Shown piece after piece: positions 14,898 to 62,818 of a stretch of 64,000 bases of DNA; position 1 is the stretch's first letter, and every line of letters begins with the position of its first letter. Both the position numbers and the translations under genes were made by a program. This stretch comes from a bacterium (GTDB taxonomy: Bacteria; Patescibacteriota; Patescibacteriia; JBDRHN01), in assembly GCA_043816765.1 (NCBI GenBank), contig JBDRHN010000023.1, positions 17,353-81,352 on the forward strand, given 5' to 3'. The notes under the pieces were generated by a model, which had not been told where the DNA came from, did not search any database, and was given only the letters and a program-made list of their open reading frames with translations.

Positions 14898-16763
<1,866 letters not shown>

Positions 16764-31974: not shown

Positions 31975-32073
31975 CAAAAACCTGTATCCTGAACTGTCAC
32001 CGGATGGTGGCGTGGCTGGGACTCCCAGCATAGGGACGTGGTTGGGAAAAGCCCTTTTTTAGGGCGTTTTTTT
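31975..32073 (+). ncRNA. candidate small RNA (~100 nt) ending at intrinsic terminator
   Basis: no CDS; GC-rich structured core; terminator GCCCTTTTTTAGGGC + T7 at 32051-32073. Confidence 0.4.
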
Positions 32074-32162: not shown

Positions 32163-32410
32163 CTGTCATTCCAGAAAATTTTTTCCCACGGCATTTAACA
32201 ATAGTATTTTGCTCTGCTTAGAATGATATTAACAAAAACTTGGTTAAACTCACTGAAAAAATTTATCTGGAATCCAGGAGGCATTGCAATAACTCCTGGA
32301 TTCCAAATAAATTTTTTAATCTTATTGTTCTGGCTATTATTAAATAAAAAATATTATTTTATTTTAATTTGTTTTAATCAGCGCCGTGGAAAAAATTTTT
32401 TGGAATGACA
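32163..32410. mobile_element. MITE-like element (~250 bp) with 27-bp terminal inverted repeats and central palindrome
   Basis: TIR GTCATTCCAGAAAATTTTTTCCCACGGC / GCCGTGGAAAAAATTTTTTGGAATGAC; central CTGGAATCCAGGAG..CTCCTGGATTCCA; related partial copy 54760-54920. Confidence 0.6.
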
Positions 32411-49462: not shown

Positions 49463-50647
49463 ATGCAACAAAAAGGAAAATTCGGACAATACGGCGGGGT
49501 GTTCTCGCCGGAAACATTGATGCCCGCTTTGGAAGAGCTTGAAGCGGCTTATTTTAATATTGTTAAAAAAGATAAAAAGTTTAATGCTGAATTAAATTAT
49601 TTATTGCAACAATACGCGGGCAGACCGACGCCGCTTTATTTTGCGGAGAATTTGTCAAAAAAATTGGGACGTAAAATTTATCTCAAACGAGAAGACTTGT
49701 TGCATGGCGGAGCGCATAAGACTAACAATGGTTTGGGGCAAGGTTTGCTTGCCAAATATATGGGAAAGAAAAGGATTATAGCGGAAACGGGGGCGGGGCA
49801 GCATGGGTTTGCCGTAGCGATGATTGGCGCGTTTTTGGGGATACAGACGGAAGTATATATGGGCGTGGAAGATATAGAAAGGCAAAGAATGAATGTTCTG
49901 CGAATGAGGATGTGCGGGGCGAAAATTAATCCGGTTGAAATTCGTCCGGGGGTTGGTTCCCTCAAAGACGCGACTAACGAGGCGATGCGCGACTGGATAA
50001 CAAATGTTCGCACTACTTATTATATAATCGGTTCAGCGGTCGGGCCTCATCCGTATCCAACTATGGTGGCGCAATTTCAGAGAGTTATCAGCAAAGAGAT
50101 AAAAAAGCAGAGCATAAAACAGATCGGTAAATTGCCTGATACTGTGATTGCTTGCGTTGGCGGAGGCAGTAACGCAATCGGCGCTTTTTATGAATTTATT
50201 AATGATAAAAAAGTAAAGTTAATAGGCGTTGAGCCTGCCGGTTTGGGTGTTAATACGACTAAAACCGGAGCGTCAATCGGCAAAGGACGAGATGGAATAT
50301 TGCACGGTTCGCTGTCTAAAGTTCTTCAAGATAAAGACGGGCAAATTAAAGAGGCGTATAGCGTTTCCGCGGGGCTTGATTATCCGGGGGTTGGTCCGCA
50401 ACATGCTCATCTCGCAAAAACAGGGCGCGCGAAATACGAGGCTGTTACCGACAAAGAGGCGTTGGACGCGTTTGAATTGTTGTCAAAGTGCGAAGGAATC
50501 ATTCCCGCGCTTGAATCGGCTCATGCTGTTGCTTATGCTGTGAAATATGCTAAAATATGTCGGAAGGATGAGGTTGTGGTGGTTAATTTGTCGGGGCGGG
50601 GAGATAAAGATATGGAACATGTGAGCTCTCTAATAGGACACAGATAA
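49463..50647 (+). CDS. trpB: tryptophan synthase beta chain
   Basis: full-length TrpB (PLP Lys region [17 protein letters not shown]). Confidence 0.96.
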
Positions 50648-50740
50648 ACACAGACTAAAGCGCAGATAAACACAGATAAAATTATAAAAAATCAGTGTTC
50701 ATCTGCGCCCGAATGGTCAGTGTTTATTTGTGTGCTATTA
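50638..50740 (+). repeat. ~100-bp CAGATAAACACAG-family repeat, copy 1 (overlaps trpB stop)
   Basis: near-identical to 51138-51240; internal imperfect palindrome GCGCAGATAAACAC...GTGTTCATCTGCGC. Confidence 0.85.
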
Positions 50741-50747
50741 TATAAAT

Positions 50748-51155
50748 ATGCAAAATTATCAACACTCAGAATTGACCAAAAAAATTATTTCCTGTTTTTA
50801 TCAAGTCTACAATACTCTCGGTTATGGGTTTTTAGAAAAGGTCTATGAAAATTCTTTAATAAAAGAGTTGAATAAAAATGGATTAAAACCAGTTCAACAA
50901 ATGCCGATTAAGGTTTATTATGAAGGTGAATTGGTTGGTGATTATTTTGCAGATATTGTTGTTGAAAATTTGGTGATATTAGAACTAAAAGCGCAGGAAC
51001 TTCTATGCCCTGAGAACGAAGCTCAGCTATTGAACTATTTAAAAGCAACGAAGTATGAGATTGGTTTATTGTTAAATTTTGGAACAAAGCCAGAGATAAG
51101 GCGAAAAATATATAGCAATAATTTAAAGAATTCAACACAGATAAACACAGACTAA
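50748..51155 (+). CDS. GxxExxY protein (predicted PD-(D/E)xK nuclease fold)
   Basis: LGYGFLEKVYENSL motif plus DIVVEN..LELK; flanked by direct repeats; start at ATG 50748. Confidence 0.75.
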   Translation: MQNYQHSELTKKIISCFYQVYNTLGYGFLEKVYENSLIKELNKNGLKPVQQMPIKVYYEGELVGDYFADIVVENLVILELKAQELLCPENEAQLLNYLKATKYEIGLLLNFGTKPEIRRKIYSNNLKNSTQINTD

Positions 51156-51240
51156 AGCGCAGATAAACACAGATAAAATTATAAAAAATCAGTGTTCATC
51201 TGCGCCCGAAGGGTCAGTGTTTATTTGTGTGCTATTTAAA
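51138..51240 (+). repeat. ~100-bp repeat, copy 2 (direct repeat of copy 1)
   Basis: approximately one mismatch over ~100 bp relative to copy 1. Confidence 0.85.
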
Positions 51241-51243
51241 GAT

Positions 51244-52041
51244 ATGTCATTGATAGATAAAAAATTCAAACCAAACCAAGGAACGCTTGCCATTGGTACT
51301 GTTCCCGGATATCCCGACATGGAAACGAGTTTTGAAATCGTTAAGGCTATTGTTTCCGGCGGGGCGGATATTTTGGAGATGTCTTCTTCTTTTTCTGATC
51401 CTATTGCTGATGGTCCGACACTGCAACAAGCGCACGCGCAAATTTTAAAACATGGCGTTACAAAAGCGCAAGTGTTTAATTTTTATAAAAAAATAAAAAA
51501 AAATTATCCTGAAATTCCAATATTTGTGATTGAGTATTCTAATATTGTTTATACCAACGGCATTGATAATTATTATAAAAAATTAAAAGAGGGCGGGGTT
51601 GATTTGCTTTTAATTCCGGATGTTCCGCTTGAGGAGCTAAAGCCCTACAGCGCGGCGGCTAAAACATACGGAATCGGCCAGTCTTATATAGCGGCGCCGA
51701 CAACGGATAATGAAAGGCTGAAAAAAATTATTCCAAATGTTAACGGTTTTATATATGTGGCAACGGTAACAGGGATTACCGGCGCGAGAAAAAATGTTGA
51801 GGATGAGACTAAAAAGCTTTTGCGAAGAATTAAAACACAGACAAAAATTCCATTGGTCGCGGGGTTTGGAATCAGTAAGCCGGAACACGTAAAAACAGCT
51901 TTGAAATCTGGCGCAGATGGGGTTGTGATCTGTTCGCAGATTATTAATATTATTAATAAAAATTTGAAAAATAAGAAGAAGATGTTGAGTGAGGTTGAGG
52001 GGTTTGTGAAGGAAATGAAAAAAGCCTGCAGTCATTACTAA
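51244..52041 (+). CDS. trpA: tryptophan synthase alpha chain
   Basis: TrpA TIM barrel; start at ATG 51244, because the ORF-track N-terminus lies in the repeat. Confidence 0.92.
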   Translation: MSLIDKKFKPNQGTLAIGTVPGYPDMETSFEIVKAIVSGGADILEMSSSFSDPIADGPTLQQAHAQILKHGVTKAQVFNFYKKIKKNYPEIPIFVIEYSNIVYTNGIDNYYKKLKEGGVDLLLIPDVPLEELKPYSAAAKTYGIGQSYIAAPTTDNERLKKIIPNVNGFIYVATVTGITGARKNVEDETKKLLRRIKTQTKIPLVAGFGISKPEHVKTALKSGADGVVICSQIINIINKNLKNKKKMLSEVEGFVKEMKKACSHY

Positions 52042-52079
52042 GATGTAAAAACGACGATGCAGGCTCTTTCTTATTTTTT
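52024..52079 (+). terminator. hairpin + T-tract downstream of trpA, convergent with small minus-strand ORF
   Basis: GCCTGCA ...TGCAGGC stem with long loop, then CTTTCTTATTTTTT. Confidence 0.4.
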
Positions 52080-52166
52080 GTCTTGAGATGTTGCAACCTC
52101 AGACAAAAAATAAAAAATCTTTATCGCCACACCTGTGGCGATAAAATATAAAAATATTTTTTCCAT
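52072..52166 (-). CDS. small hydrophobic peptide (31 aa) with consensus SD
   Basis: AAAGGAGGTGAAAGAAATG; MEKIFLYFIATGVAIKIFYFLSEVATSQDKK; putative TTGACA promoter upstream. Confidence 0.5.
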
Positions 52167-52337
52167 TTCTTTCACCTCCTTTCAATGGAAAAATATTTAA
52201 TCACAAATTAAATTATATTATGATTTTTGTCAAGAGAAAATAAAACACCTGTCATTCTGAGCGACTTTTACCGCGAACTTGAAGAAATAAAAAAATTTAA
52301 TAATTGCATAAAATTGAAAAACAATCAGAATTAAGCG

Positions 52338-52495
52338 AAGAATCCCGCGGTTGTTGCAGGAACAACGAGATTCTACTCGTCGGCTCCATAGTCCCGAACG
52401 AAGTGAGGGCTATGGAGCCGATATGCGCGCGATAGCAAAACATGCCGGCTCCATAGCCCCCGCTGGCGCGGGGGACTATGGAGCCAACGCGTATT
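52338..52495. repeat. GC-rich palindrome cluster (GGCTCCATAG..CTATGGAGCC hairpins x2 and others)
   Basis: hairpins at 52383-52420 and 52447-52485; partial copy 62137-62150. Confidence 0.8.
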
Positions 52496-52627
52496 AAATC
52501 TAAAATAAATACCAAGCAAGGTGCTGGACACCCAAGGGGGTGTTTGGTTGGCGGTTGAAAAATTTATAAAATAAATAAAGCCCCCGCAAGCTTGAAGTGA
52601 AAATAAGACATTGCGGGGGGGGGGCGG

Positions 52628-52753
52628 TCAACAGCTCAGCATGCCTACTACGCATGCTATGGCGGTTAAACCGCCCGCCATTTCGGATTGAGTCAACAAA
52701 AAAAATAAAAACCCAATCCCGACTAAAAAATAAAAAAAATAAAATCTTCCCAT
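52628..52753 (-). CDS. small hydrophobic peptide (41 aa) with consensus SD, paralog of 52072..52166
   Basis: AGAAAGGAGGTGAGAAAAATG; MGRFYFFYFLVGIGFLFFLLTQSEMAGGLTAIACVVGMLSC; 3' half overlaps GC palindromes. Confidence 0.45.
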   Translation of the reverse strand: MGRFYFFYFLVGIGFLFFLLTQSEMAGGLTAIACVVGMLSC

Positions 52754-52813
52754 TTTTCTCACCTCCTTTCTGGAAAAGACTTAAAAGATCAATATAATTT
52801 TATACATTAAATT

Positions 52814-54040
52814 ATGCCTTTTGTCAAGAAAAAAAATAAAAAATTTTTCCACGCACTTCTATTGCTCTGCGCTTTTTTAATTCTTCTGCCATCAGCAATA
52901 CTAGCCGAATACAAGACTCCCCTATCCGTATTTGTCCGCGAAGGATGCGGGCATTGCTCCCATGAAGAAGAATTTATAACCGAACTCCAAAACAAACGTT
53001 CTGATTTTGAGGTTTTTTATTATGATATCAATACCGAAACCGGCCGTGAAAAATTTTTAGAAATTACAAAGCTTGAAAATCTGCAACAAGGCACGCCGAT
53101 TGCTTTAGTCGGGAACACAATAGTTCAGGGATTTGGGACAGCTGAAACAACAGGGAAAGAGATTGAAGAATTATTAGATTTAAGTTGCGGAAAACAGACT
53201 TTAAATTTTGAAGAATATTTGTCAAAAGGAGGATCAAAAGGCGGGGTAAAGCCGATTGAAAGCGAGAACCAAGAAGAATGCGACGCCAATTCAAATAAAT
53301 TTTTGGTAGATGTTCCTTTTTACGGAGTCGTAAATTTAAAATCATTTTCACTCCCCATGATTGCCACTATTTTAGGCTTTGTTGATGGGTTCAATCCATG
53401 CGCGATGTGGGTTTTAATAACTTTCTTGCTTGTGCTGATGCAAATTGGCGACAAAAAAAGGATGTGGCAAATCGCGGGACTGTTTATTGCCGCTGAAACA
53501 ATAATGTATTTTTTGATTTTGAATCTATGGTTCACGACATGGAATTTTATCGGACTTGATCGTATTGTTACTCCCATCATAGGGATTGTGGCAATCGGCG
53601 GAGGAATTTTCTTTTTGTGGGAAGCGAAAAAAAATGATGGCACTTGCCATGTTACAAATCCGGAACAGCGGAAAAAAACTCATAATAAAATAAAAGATCT
53701 CGCGGCTCGTCCGATGACTATTGCAACAGCCATCGGCGTTATCGGTCTTGCGCTTTCGGTAAATATTATTGAATTTGCCTGTTCAATAGGAATCCCTCAG
53801 GCTTTTACTAAAATTTTAGAAATCAACCGTTTGTCTTGGGGAGCTAATCAAGGATTAATATTGCTATATACTCTCTTCTATATGATTGATGATATCATTG
53901 TTTTCGGGCTTGCGCTTTGGAGCTTTGAACATCTTCATTTAACTCAAAAATACGCAAGATGGTGCAATATCATCGGCGGGATTTTGATGATAATTTTGGG
54001 ACTTCTCTTAATATTTAATCCGGCGATGTTGAGATTTTGA
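52814..54040 (+). CDS. thioredoxin-like (CGHC) periplasmic domain fused to CcdA/DsbD-type transmembrane thiol-disulfide transporter
   Basis: signal peptide, CGHC redox motif, TM domain with NPC (GFNPCAMW) and second Cys (EFACSIG). Confidence 0.8.
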   Translation: MPFVKKKNKKFFHALLLLCAFLILLPSAILAEYKTPLSVFVREGCGHCSHEEEFITELQNKRSDFEVFYYDINTETGREKFLEITKLENLQQGTPIALVGNTIVQGFGTAETTGKEIEELLDLSCGKQTLNFEEYLSKGGSKGGVKPIESENQEECDANSNKFLVDVPFYGVVNLKSFSLPMIATILGFVDGFNPCAMWVLITFLLVLMQIGDKKRMWQIAGLFIAAETIMYFLILNLWFTTWNFIGLDRIVTPIIGIVAIGGGIFFLWEAKKNDGTCHVTNPEQRKKTHNKIKDLAARPMTIATAIGVIGLALSVNIIEFACSIGIPQAFTKILEINRLSWGANQGLILLYTLFYMIDDIIVFGLALWSFEHLHLTQKYARWCNIIGGILMIILGLLLIFNPAMLRF

Positions 54041-54045
54041 TTTGT

Positions 54046-54150
54046 TGAATAGCACACAGATGAACACTGACCCTGCGGGCGCAGATTAACACTAATTTTT
54101 TATAATTTTAAATCTGTGTTTATCTGCGCTTTAGTCTGTGTTAATCTGTG
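54046..54150 (-). repeat. ~100-bp CAGATAAACACAG-family repeat, copy 3 (inverted orientation)
   Basis: ATCTGTGTTTATCTGCGCTTTAGTCTGTGTTAATCTG is the reverse complement of copy-1 5' part. Confidence 0.8.
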
Positions 54151-54166
54151 TCCTATTTTTTTAATT

Positions 54167-54703
54167 ATGTATTTTGTAAAATTAAAAACCAAAAAAGATA
54201 CTGTTGGTTTTGCTAATCAAATAGCTAATATTTGCAACAATCAAACCCCCCAACCCCCCTTGTCAGGGGGGCTATATGTTGTTGCCCTCATTGGCGAGCT
54301 TGGGGTTGGGAAGACTTTTTTTACGAAAGCTTTGGGAAAGGCGCTTGGGGTTAAAGAAACGATTAAAAGTCCGAGTTTTAATTTGATGAAAGTTTATGAA
54401 ATACCGGGCAGACGAACCGTAGAGACGAGGCAGTGCCTCGTCTCTACACAAATCAAAACGTTAGTTCATGTTGATTGTTATCGTTTGAATAGTGCTGAGG
54501 AGTTAATTGATATTGGGCTTTTGGATTATTTTGGATATAATAATACTCTTATTGTTATTGAGTGGGCTGATAAAATAAAAAAAATCTTGCCGAAAGATGC
54601 AGTTTGGGTAAAATTTAAAATGGGAAAAGATGGGGTGAGAATGGCGGCGGTGAATTTAAAACCAATGTCATTCCAAAAAATTTTTTCCATCAATATTAGT
54701 TAA
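54167..54703 (+). CDS. tsaE: tRNA t6A biosynthesis ATPase TsaE with two in-frame palindromic insertions
   Basis: Walker A GELGVGKT; SPSFNLMKVYE...LVHVDCYRL TsaE signature interrupted by RRTVETRQCLVST (54419-54448); QTPQPPLSGG insertion at 54243-54272; start at ATG 54167. Confidence 0.78.
   Translation: MYFVKLKTKKDTVGFANQIANICNNQTPQPPLSGGLYVVALIGELGVGKTFFTKALGKALGVKETIKSPSFNLMKVYEIPGRRTVETRQCLVSTQIKTLVHVDCYRLNSAEELIDIGLLDYFGYNNTLIVIEWADKIKKILPKDAVWVKFKMGKDGVRMAAVNLKPMSFQKIFSINIS
54419..54448. repeat. family A palindrome inside tsaE (in frame)
   Basis: GTAGAGACGAGGCAGTGCCTCGTCTCTACA. Confidence 0.85.
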
Positions 54704-54759
54704 CGTAAACCAAAATAGAATAATATTACTTTAGTAAAAATCTATATTAATGAGATTAA

Positions 54760-54920
54760 AAAATTTATTTGGAATCCAGGAGGAATTGCACAAACCCCTG
54801 GATTCCAGATAAATTTTTTCAGTGCATTAATTAATTTTTTGTTAATATTAGATTTTAATCAAAGTAAAAATGTTTGCTTAAGGGCGATGGAAAAAATTTT
54901 CTGGAATGACAGGCTTTGGT
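54760..54920. mobile_element. partial MITE-like element (central palindrome + right TIR), related to 32163-32410
   Basis: TTTGGAATCCAGGAGG..CCCTGGATTCCAGA and GCGATGGAAAAAATTTTCTGGAATGACAGG. Confidence 0.5.
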
Positions 54921-55939: not shown

Positions 55940-56012
55940 GCACCAATAACTCAGTGGTGAGAGTGCCACCCTTATAAGGTGGAAGTCGATGGTTCAAATC
56001 CATCTTGGTGCA
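55940..56012 (+). tRNA. tRNA-Ile (anticodon UAU)
   Basis: acceptor GCACCAA/TTGGTGC, D-arm ACTC-AGTGGTGA-GAGT, anticodon stem CCACC/GGTGG loop CTTATAA, T-arm GATGG-TTCAAAT-CCATC. Confidence 0.8.
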
Positions 56013-56093
56013 CAATATTGAACTTCTCTTTATGAAAAACGCCGAGGATTTTGGCGTTGGTTTAGATTATCTAACATTACATCCCCACTGGCA

Positions 56094-62287: not shown

Positions 62288-62410
62288 CAGACTATCTAAA
62301 AATCATATCTGTGTTAATCTTCGCTTTAGTCTGTGTTCATCTGTGTCCTATTTTCAATCAACCCAAGCTAAAAAATAATTAGACGCAGATTAACACTGAC
62401 CCTTCGGGCG
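62288..62410 (-). repeat. CAGATAAACACAG-family repeat, copy 4 (rearranged, inverted)
   Basis: ATCTGTGTTAATCTTCGCTTTAGTCTGTGTTCATCTGTG ... AGACGCAGATTAACACTGACCCTTCGGGCG. Confidence 0.7.
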
Positions 62411-62818
62411 CTGAAAAACACAGATTTTAGATAAAAACTTTTTTAATTCAGGAACAATATCATCTATGTTCTCGTATTCAATCACAATATCGGTAATACC
62501 TTTTGCGGTATCTTTCAATAAAACTCCGCGCTTCACAAGAACTATTATTTTTTTATTCATTGCATAAGCAATTCCCGCTTCTATGGCGCGCCCTGTTGAC
62601 TTATGCGTGAGATCAATCAATAGCGCGTCGCATGATTTAATCTCCTGTTTTGTTATTGCCATCATTTCCAACGGATTATCAAAAAAATTTTGATAATTTT
62701 CTATATCACGAATAAAACAAAAATCATTAAATCCTGCTTGCTTTGCAATATTGCAAAGATGTTCTATCTCGGATTGGTTTTCACCGTGCTTAAAAGTGGC
62801 TGTAATAAATAACTTCAT
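62390..62818 (-). CDS. nucleoside 2-deoxyribosyltransferase-like protein
   Basis: HKSTGRAIEAGIAYAMNKKIIVL resembles the NDT-family active-site region; C-terminus overlaps the repeat. Confidence 0.5.
   Translation of the reverse strand: MKLFITATFKHGENQSEIEHLCNIAKQAGFNDFCFIRDIENYQNFFDNPLEMMAITKQEIKSCDALLIDLTHKSTGRAIEAGIAYAMNKKIIVLVKRGVLLKDTAKGITDIVIEYENIDDIVPELKKFLSKICVFQRPKGQC

Follow-up and report, generated by a model that had tools for sequence, protein, structure and literature searches.

The locus described here raises a simple question: why do two very short open reading frames (ORFs) carry perfect Shine-Dalgarno (SD) sequences in DNA whose ordinary genes lack them? The window, that is the whole stretch of 64,000 nucleotides (nt) that was analysed, comes from a bacterium of the Patescibacteriota (assembly GCA_043816765.1, contig JBDRHN010000023.1, positions 17,353 to 81,352). 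The gap between trpA (+ strand, ending at 52041) and P0001 (+ strand, 52814..54040) holds two compact units on the minus strand. P0001 (MFH1564464.1) is a glutaredoxin/CcdA-like protein of 408 amino acids (aa), encoded divergently from unit 1. Both units share the same arrangement: a TTGACA box, the 12-nt sequence GAAAGGAGGTGA, an ATG 6 nt further on, a short hydrophobic ORF and a terminator of their own. The components are as follows.

52799..52827, minus strand: unit 1 promoter (TTGACA at 52827-52822, 17-nt spacer with TG at its end, TATAAA at 52804-52799)
52759..52770, minus strand: unit 1 extended SD, GAAAGGAGGTGA, 6 nt before the ATG (52753)
52628..52753, minus strand: ORF1, family B, 41 aa, MGRFYFFYFLVGIGFLFFLLTQSEMAGGLTAIACVVGMLSC, with its ATG at 52753
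52568..52621, minus strand: unit 1 intrinsic terminator, GC-rich, CCCCCGCAA ... TTGCGGGGG followed by CTTTATTTATTTT
52205..52233, minus strand: unit 2 promoter (TTGACA at 52233-52228, 17-nt spacer, TAATTT at 52210-52205)
52172..52183, minus strand: unit 2 extended SD, GAAAGGAGGTGA, 6 nt before the ATG (52166)
52071..52166, minus strand: ORF2, family A, 31 aa, MEKIFLYFIATGVAIKIFYFLSEVATSQDKK, 96 nt including the stop codon
52018..52065, both strands: terminator C, bidirectional, ending unit 2 (minus) and the trp operon (plus)

A sequence-only reading of the same DNA had placed the ORFs, the SDs and the TTGACA boxes correctly, apart from the lower limit of ORF2, which it gave as 52072 and which is 52071 with the stop codon. 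It had also called the two ORFs paralogous, and this is borne out by an identity of 77-81% over the promoter, the 5' untranslated region (UTR) and the first codons. The identity is 69% over 107 nt (blastn), and the first 20 residues of ORF1 and ORF2 align without gaps and with conservative replacements. Units 1 and 2 are paralogues. The 5' UTR of unit 1 measures about 35 nt. There is no gene downstream of unit 2 on the minus strand and neither unit shares an operon with any gene. With their own promoter, extended SD, short ORF and terminator the units are best read as real autonomous mini-genes. The left arm of terminator C, with its T-tract on the minus strand, codes for the final residues of TrpA. 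Unit 2 and the trp mRNA end at this common terminator, and we estimate from the sequence that their 3' ends would overlap by about 65 nt.

The sequence GAAAGGAGGTGA is the perfect complement of the canonical 16S rRNA 3' tail UCACCUCCUUUC. Its 11-mer AAAGGAGGTGA was found exactly twice in the window, both times at these units. The number expected by chance from composition is about 0.03 (an estimate), though the two copies are not independent events because the units are duplicates. The scarcity of SDs asserted in the sequence-only reading held across the window: 0 of the 57 large ORFs (at least 100 aa) have GGAGG before the likely start, and AAGGAG was found only at EF-Tu. The sequence upstream of ordinary genes is A/T-rich, and in the window as a whole GGAGG shows no enrichment, with 39 occurrences against 43 expected. 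We then ranked all positions on both strands of the window by the energy of the duplex with the 16S tail, using the assumed canonical tail rather than the host's own. The unit 1 site ranked first (-21.9 kcal/mol) and the unit 2 site second (-21.5 kcal/mol), followed by a run of Gs at -17.6 kcal/mol. The extended SDs of the two units are the only full-strength ribosome-binding sites in the 64 kb.

To compare the locus with its relatives we used four metagenomic contigs (L005, L006, L128 and L129) that were fetched via TrpA or P0001 homologues of 76-85% identity. The named homologues of both proteins belong mostly to Parcubacteria and other Patescibacteria. In all four contigs the order is trpA, gap, P0001 homologue, and in all four the gap holds hydrophobic minus-strand mini-ORFs led by an SD. 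The mini-ORFs fall into three families.

Family A, 30-31 aa: MEKIFLYFIATGVAIKIFYFLSEVATSQDKK (ORF2 of the window), MENMFFYFIAAAAAIKIYFFIRQYAPDKKEK (L006, 31 aa), MENFLFLWLPMVVIGGEIFIFFLRVTEEKE (L128, 30 aa)
Family B, 41 aa: MGRFYFFYFLVGIGFLFFLLTQSEMAGGLTAIACVVGMLSC (ORF1 of the window), MKIVIFNFLAVVGGCLFCATQSQLVGIATNFVCVAGIFFSE (L129, 41 aa)
Family C, 52-60 aa: L005 and L129, with two hydrophobic segments and an AAGGAGG SD

Absence from the closest relatives had been named beforehand as grounds for giving up the two genes; we found family A in L006 and L128 and family B in L129. The 12-mer is perfectly conserved in the five units of families A and B, and in the two family C units AAGGAGG is followed by a start codon. 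The distance from GGAGG to the start codon is 6-9 nt in all seven. The unit 1 promoter is kept in L129, a 34-nt stretch of the unit 2 promoter region is identical in L006 (both by alignment) and terminator C is kept in L006, L128 and L129.

A separate observation concerns other strong SDs with a well-spaced start codon in related SD-poor contigs. These also precede small ORFs (27-86 aa), several of which are called genes without a Pfam hit, and not all of which are hydrophobic. The positions are the following.

L005: 3806 (plus strand) and 4128 (plus strand)
L007: 2812 (plus strand) and 8636 (plus strand)
L130: 10849 (minus strand)

This suggests a clade-wide association of strong SDs with small ORFs.

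The content of the gap differs among the relatives, with gains, losses and remnants of mini-genes. L129 has families B and C; its family A unit has lost the ORF, and what remains is an SD joined directly to the terminator. In L006 the 178-nt spacer between trpA and P0001 consists entirely of the hairpins C, B and A described below and the P0001 promoter region. The mini-gene families were duplicated, replaced and lost within one slot between trpA and the glutaredoxin/CcdA-like gene. We found no further copies of the units by blastn in the window or in any related locus fetched.

A common feature of all units is that the -35 box sits in the first codons of the divergent P0001-type gene. At unit 1 the codons 3-5 of P0001, TTT GTC AAG (F-V-K), read as TTGACA on the opposite strand. 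The P0001-type proteins start with MPFVKKK, MAFVKRK or MIFVKRK (pattern M[PAI]FVK[KR]K). The first 7 codons of P0001 accompany every unit. The same junction is seen as a remnant beside unit 2.

52220..52243, plus strand: dead P0001-type 5' remnant MIFVKRK* (ATG ATT TTT GTC AAG AGA AAA TAA)

This remnant is identical to the N-terminus of P0123, the L006 homologue of P0001, and marks a former junction between unit 2 and P0001. The ancestor was therefore L006-like, with a single family A unit that abutted P0001. Later, recombination inside the first codons inserted a segment between unit 2 and P0001; it brought in a P0001 5' end together with GC-rich palindromes and a family B unit with its terminator. 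In L129 a comparable remnant, MLFVNKK, stands before a gene for an NYN-domain protein, beside the family B unit. Judged from these junctions the units behave as movable modules.

We then considered whether the ORFs code for protein. ORF2 encodes a hydrophobic segment followed by a polar, charged tail, a pattern kept across family A. ORF1 encodes two hydrophobic helices with TQSE between them; it shares 38% identity with its L129 orthologue, including TQS and CV.G. AlphaFold predicted helices at residues 2-22 and 27-39 of ORF1, a helix-break-helix with a pLDDT (predicted local distance difference test) of 69. The hydrophobic character claimed in the sequence-only reading is evident in the best 15-aa Kyte-Doolittle windows, which score 2.1 and 2.6 for the 31- and 41-aa peptides and 1.9-2.8 across all peptides. 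Part of this hydrophobicity is a by-product of T-runs, because TTT encodes Phe; each peptide has 6-9 aromatic residues. ORF length is held at 31, 31 and 30 aa in family A and at 41 and 41 aa in family B, and the net length differences are multiples of three. In family A the 3' half of the ORF was rewritten and the stop codon moved, yet it stays 0-9 nt from terminator C. In shuffled controls each ORF remained open in only 6-12% of the trials. On these grounds we regard translation of the ORFs as likely. We conclude that the exact amino-acid sequence matters little beyond its composition. The families are fast-evolving and confined to a narrow clade of the candidate phyla radiation (CPR).

The predicted transcripts are compact and dense in hairpins, with a length of about 190-230 nt. 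The main folds in the window are listed here.

52152..52198, minus strand: unit 2 5' hairpin, stem UUUUUCCAUU/AAUGGAAAAA containing the AUG, SD in the 16-nt apical loop
52105..52146, minus strand: hairpin A in ORF2, terminator-like, with a perfect stem of 12 bp (52146-52119) and then a T-run
52067..52117, minus strand: hairpin B, formed by a U-run and an A-run, the latter coding for the Lys-rich tail and the stop codon
52743..52790, minus strand: two-tier hairpin of the unit 1 5' UTR, a UCUUUUCC tract paired with the SD GGAGGUGA and an outer stem over the AUG region
52722-52683, 52681-52659 and 52658-52638, minus strand: H1, H2 and H3, predicted hairpins inside ORF1

All three family A transcripts have the same four predicted hairpins (z from -7.9 to -8.7). 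In the first the stem UUUUCCAUU/AAUGGAAAA holds the AUG and a loop of 13-16 nt displays the SD, as predicted for unit 2 and also for L006 and L128. Hairpin A shows four compensated pair changes in L006 and a different GC stem at the same place in L128. The A-run of hairpin B, which on the plus strand forms the T-tract of the trpA terminator, encodes the Lys/Glu tail of family A. The fourth hairpin is terminator C. Family B transcripts reach a z of about -5. H1 and H2 have counterparts at matching positions in L129, where the stem sequences differ (stems compared by eye), the two-tier 5' fold is also predicted for the L129 orthologue, and in family C a CU-rich tract is able to pair with the SD. 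Taken alone the 5' hairpins are no better than shuffled controls, though they recur in every orthologue.

Our preferred reading, which we put forward tentatively from these sequence features, is that the units are SD-dependent genes for small, toxin-like membrane peptides whose translation is gated by mRNA folding. The ORFs would be translated through an unusually long SD-antiSD helix, with ordinary genes starting without an SD. The products would insert into the membrane, family A with one helix and a charged tail and family B as a helical hairpin. Folding of the mRNA would restrict initiation, in family A with the AUG in a stem and the SD in a loop and in family B with both elements paired. 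The most speculative step is that the peptides would be membrane-active and toxin-like, which would make the units modules resembling type I toxins, with a control element, if any, that we did not find.

Several results weigh against this proposal. The differences between orthologues are distributed over the three codon positions as 16/15/17 and 10/7/15, with no third-position excess, and peptide identity is only 38-45%, compared to about 84% for neighbouring proteins; this indicates weak constraint on the amino-acid sequence. Those residues that are conserved best fall in RNA stems: TQS of family B is the right arm of H1, and K/K/E in the hydrophobic stretch of family A close hairpin A. It may thus be the RNA that is conserved. 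There are just two to three orthologues per family, and neither the protein searches of ORF1 and family B nor blastn of the units against the fetched loci gave homologues beyond the clade. Crude consensus scans detected no antisense promoter conserved among the window, L006, L128 and L129. We saw no convincing complementary stretch or complementary small RNA (sRNA) nearby, the only convergent overlapping transcript being the trpA 3' end. A consensus promoter combined with a perfect SD would be odd for an unguarded toxin. Finally, the duplex energies rest on an assumed canonical 16S tail.

The likeness to type I toxins proposed in the sequence-only reading is supported in part. BsrG ends in SSQKKK, and family A has a polar, Lys-rich tail in addition to its hydrophobic segment. 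Fst/Ldr, BsrG and TxpA (PMC8309996, PMC6563280) are, like the products considered here, small hydrophobic peptides (30-41 aa here, below about 60 aa as a class) with a predicted membrane helix. They too are encoded by stand-alone intergenic units with a very structured mRNA and a start region that is paired, here by prediction. Tandem paralogues, a patchy distribution and decayed copies are further points in common, as is the 3' end, which lies at a bidirectional terminator used by a convergent transcript as well. The differences are that an antitoxin RNA gene was not found here, the only convergent transcript being the trp operon mRNA, that there is no sequence match to toxin families and that the host belongs to the CPR. 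Our literature search returned no report combining CPR and type I toxins. As there is no homologue in a curated family and no conserved antisense promoter, 'type I toxin' describes a resemblance and not a demonstrated membership.

The ORF1 and ORF2 peptides had no exact match in a collection of 15 billion proteins, phmmer with ORF1 against 1.84 billion representatives gave no hits at E up to 0.001, and a family B profile recovered only the L129 copy from 5.8 billion proteins. Pfam and NCBIfam at E up to 1 gave weak, sub-threshold, unrelated hits and no toxin family for the seven peptides, and profiles did not place them in Fst, Ldr, Hok, TisB, Ibs, BsrG, TxpA or other known toxin families. The loose metagenome DNA pattern TTTTCC-N-GAAAGGAGGTG-N-ATGG matched at least 120 stretches, and none of those listed encodes a related peptide. 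Searches of plasmids, phages and viral contigs gave no match and therefore no sign of a mobile-element origin. In the mini-gene region nothing reached the gathering score of an Rfam family; antisense_SR1 scored 18.4 bits, far below its threshold of 45.

One unconserved source of antisense RNA is possible. At unit 2 there is a plus-strand copy of the P0001 promoter region.

52186-52214, plus strand: TGGAAA, 17 nt, TAAATT

With this region duplicated in unit 2, transcription from an orphan promoter may proceed on the plus strand into the palindromes between the units. It would then continue antisense across ORF1, as the terminator of unit 1 lacks a T-tract in that orientation.

A first alternative, possible although on the unlikely side, is that the units encode benign small membrane proteins, that is regulators or accessory subunits and maybe partners of P0001, with the strong SD ensuring high output from a very short, structured mRNA. 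All coding evidence applies equally to this case, and strong, constitutive-looking signals would be expected of an abundant structural peptide rather than of a toxin. A P0001-type 5' end adjoins the units in every case, the Cys in CV.G of family B is kept beside a thiol-disulfide protein and the other strong SDs in the relatives precede small ORFs that are not all hydrophobic. However, P0001 homologues at 61-68% identity stand in other contexts and have no such mini-ORF as a neighbour, so that there is no obligate partnership; we rejected an obligatory functional link of the units to P0001 for the same reason, the more distant homologues being without units. A search of the genome collection with P0001 gave only four distant homologues, 33-43% identical and mostly archaeal. 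There is also no conserved Cys common to families A and C, and a gene content that varies at 83-85% flank identity, with rapid turnover, is not what one usually sees in a structural subunit. Well-studied small membrane proteins such as CydX and KdpF share a transcript with the complexes they belong to, from which the monocistronic, quickly turned-over units of this narrow clade differ. The likeness to bacterial small membrane proteins (PMC12648545) lies in size, hydrophobicity and absence from the annotation.

It is unlikely that the units are non-coding structured sRNAs, in which GAAAGGAGGUGA in a hairpin loop is accompanied by three hairpins and the ORF is incidental to U- and A-rich stems. 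The GAAAGGAGGUGA loop would act as a ribosome-binding decoy or regulator by pairing with the 16S 3' tail or with some other target rich in C and U. The family A transcript indeed consists almost wholly of its four hairpins, and the one large loop among them holds the 12-mer. Compensated changes keep the stems while the encoded residues change; however, palindromes can gain such changes without selection on the RNA. The absence of a third-position bias and the Phe/Tyr richness, which follows from T-runs, fit this explanation as well, as does the better conservation of promoter and 5' UTR than of the ORF, though the overlapping P0001 start and promoter explain part of the latter. What it does not account for is the optimally spaced ATG in all five A/B and both C units, and a frame and length that were kept, with indels adding up to multiples of three, though hairpin B and the stop region were rewritten; shuffled sequences would rarely have stayed open. 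SR1/SR1P and RNAIII/hld are dual-function sRNAs that also encode a peptide. They resemble the units as compact, hairpin-dense RNAs with a short ORF and a good SD, and differ in that we identified no target complementarity here.

A different view of the SDs themselves seems improbable to us: SD-antiSD pairing might be reserved as a private channel for a few tiny ORFs, with general initiation in the lineage working without SDs. The tiny ORFs would be the two described here and the SD-led ORFs of 27-86 aa in the related contigs. Whether they are made would be decided by the state of the 16S 3' tail, perhaps in a ribosome subpopulation or under stress, and the membrane peptides would be the output of this switch, comparable to bS21-lacking ribosomes and rpsU in Flavobacteria.

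The preferred reading has a precedent in SD-less Bacteroidia, where ordinary SDs are ignored and rpsU is set apart by an extended SD of about -20 kcal/mol, being translated by ribosomes lacking bS21 (PMC7797042, PMC9976891, PMC13000453). This is the closest precedent for the SD feature, with about -20 kcal/mol there (PMC9976891) against -21.5 to -21.9 kcal/mol here. Both have genes without SDs, A/T-rich upstream regions and very few long SDs, and over our 64 kb, with the canonical tail assumed, these few again reach about -20 kcal/mol. In control of the Bacteroidia type the gene with the SD is rpsU and the 16S tail is sequestered by bS21, bS18 and bS6. The SD-bearing genes here are tiny hydrophobic ORFs and not rpsU, however, and EF-Tu has a moderate SD.

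We consider it very improbable that the units are Phe/Tyr leader-peptide attenuators, in which stalling at F/Y codons would decide between termination at hairpin A and read-through antisense to the trp operon 3' end, the read-through RNA coupling aromatic amino-acid pathways. The best sub-threshold Rfam match was Phe_leader RF01859 (33.6 bits, gathering score 55), which resembles unit 2 in combining a short ORF rich in Phe with a U-run/A-run hairpin and a terminator of high GC content. The 6-9 aromatic residues per peptide, the terminator-like hairpin and U-run inside the family A ORF in 3 of 3 orthologues and the 3' overlap of unit 2 and the trp mRNA at terminator C would fit as well. However, the alignment covers only the generic U-run/A-run hairpin and the terminator and is not reproduced at orthologous sites, and there is no regulated gene downstream on the minus strand; we therefore rejected membership in RF01859. 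Antiterminator pairing is not evident, the aromatic codons are conserved neither in identity nor in position, terminator C is strong in every relative, and unit 1 and the L129 units do not lie beside trpA. Just as improbably, the minus strand would have no function at all: the hairpins would be a terminator array of the trp operon, the conserved AT-rich part would be the promoter and start of P0001, and chance, followed by a single duplication, would account for the ORFs and the 'SD'; this would suit the L006 spacer made up of hairpins C, B and A and the P0001 promoter region, and the F-V-K codons do explain the TTGACA box, but a plus-strand role leaves the 12-mer and ATG in five units and AAGGAGG and a start codon in two family C units unexplained, unit 1 and the L129 family B unit have their own terminators away from trpA, and the units were duplicated and moved as modules.

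Returning to translated membrane peptides, if they are made they would be, to our knowledge, the first toxin-like or small membrane-peptide families described in a CPR/Patescibacteria genome, a group whose small proteins are essentially uncharted. They would also give a second independent SD-less genome that keeps an extended SD for few genes, after rpsU of the Bacteroidia, and with it a way into the question of how start sites are selected by CPR ribosomes. If they are non-coding, an RNA whose loop shows 12 nt perfectly complementary to the 16S tail would be interesting by itself. The immediate impact is modest, as the families are confined to a narrow clade and the function is predicted only.

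The sequence-only reading also described GC-rich palindromes between the units and at the 3' end of ORF1. These are real, including two small palindromes within the 3' third of ORF1, and the largest element is the following.

52374-52493, both strands: GC-rich nested palindrome with four GGCTCCATAG arms, an inverted repeat (z = -9.75)

The nested palindrome is absent at the L006, L128 and L129 loci. Because of this absence from orthologous loci the cluster is probably an unrelated insertion, and it belongs to one of several families of palindromes dispersed in the genome that resemble repetitive extragenic palindromic (REP) elements. For both reasons we rejected it as a part of the system or as an antitoxin gene. 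A 15-mer of the region between the units, GGGTGTCCAGCACCT (52519-52533, minus strand), recurs as an inverted pair at 16669-16683 (minus) and 16688-16702 (plus), which points to another small dispersed repeat family.

Other palindromes and repeats of the window are listed below.

14849, 16806, 21525, 21554, 32709, 39626, 46064 and 54418: eight copies of the REP-like GC-rich palindrome GTAGAGACGAGGCACTGCCTCGTCTCTAC (32 nt), mostly intergenic
32251-32326 and 54749-54824: 76-nt palindromic element AAAAAATTTATCTGGAATCCAGGAGG...CCTGGATTCCAAATAAATTTTTT, copies 89-90% identical
50638-50739 and 51135-51236: 102-nt direct repeat, 99% identical
54040-54168 and 62301-62434: inverted relatives of the 102-nt repeat, the first beside tsaE

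One copy of GTAGAGACGAGGCACTGCCTCGTCTCTAC lies inside the ORF taken as tsaE (54116..54703). Coding sequence, too, seems to receive palindromic elements in this clade: the P0001 homologues P0123 (L006) and P0122 (L128) have a GC-rich palindrome of 15-18 bp inserted in frame close to their 5' ends, which adds about 12-14 residues without counterpart in P0001, and P0124 (L129) appears similar. These in-frame palindromes form minus-strand hairpins as follows.

L128, 1057-1096, minus strand: hairpin of the in-frame palindrome
L006, 1137-1170, minus strand: hairpin of the in-frame palindrome

The 102-nt repeat flanks a PD-(D/E)XK (PDDEXK_3) gene that is inserted between trpB and trpA, where L005 has a 23S_rRNA_IVP-type gene; the repeat reads 'MFICVLL...' in several spurious ORFs. 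One copy of the 76-nt element lies about 200 nt downstream of a DUF3800-IX RNA, which Rfam placed at 31979-32047 (plus strand) with 52.9 bits, above the gathering score. ARAGORN and Rfam also agreed on a tRNA-Ile with a UAU anticodon at 55940-56013 (plus strand).

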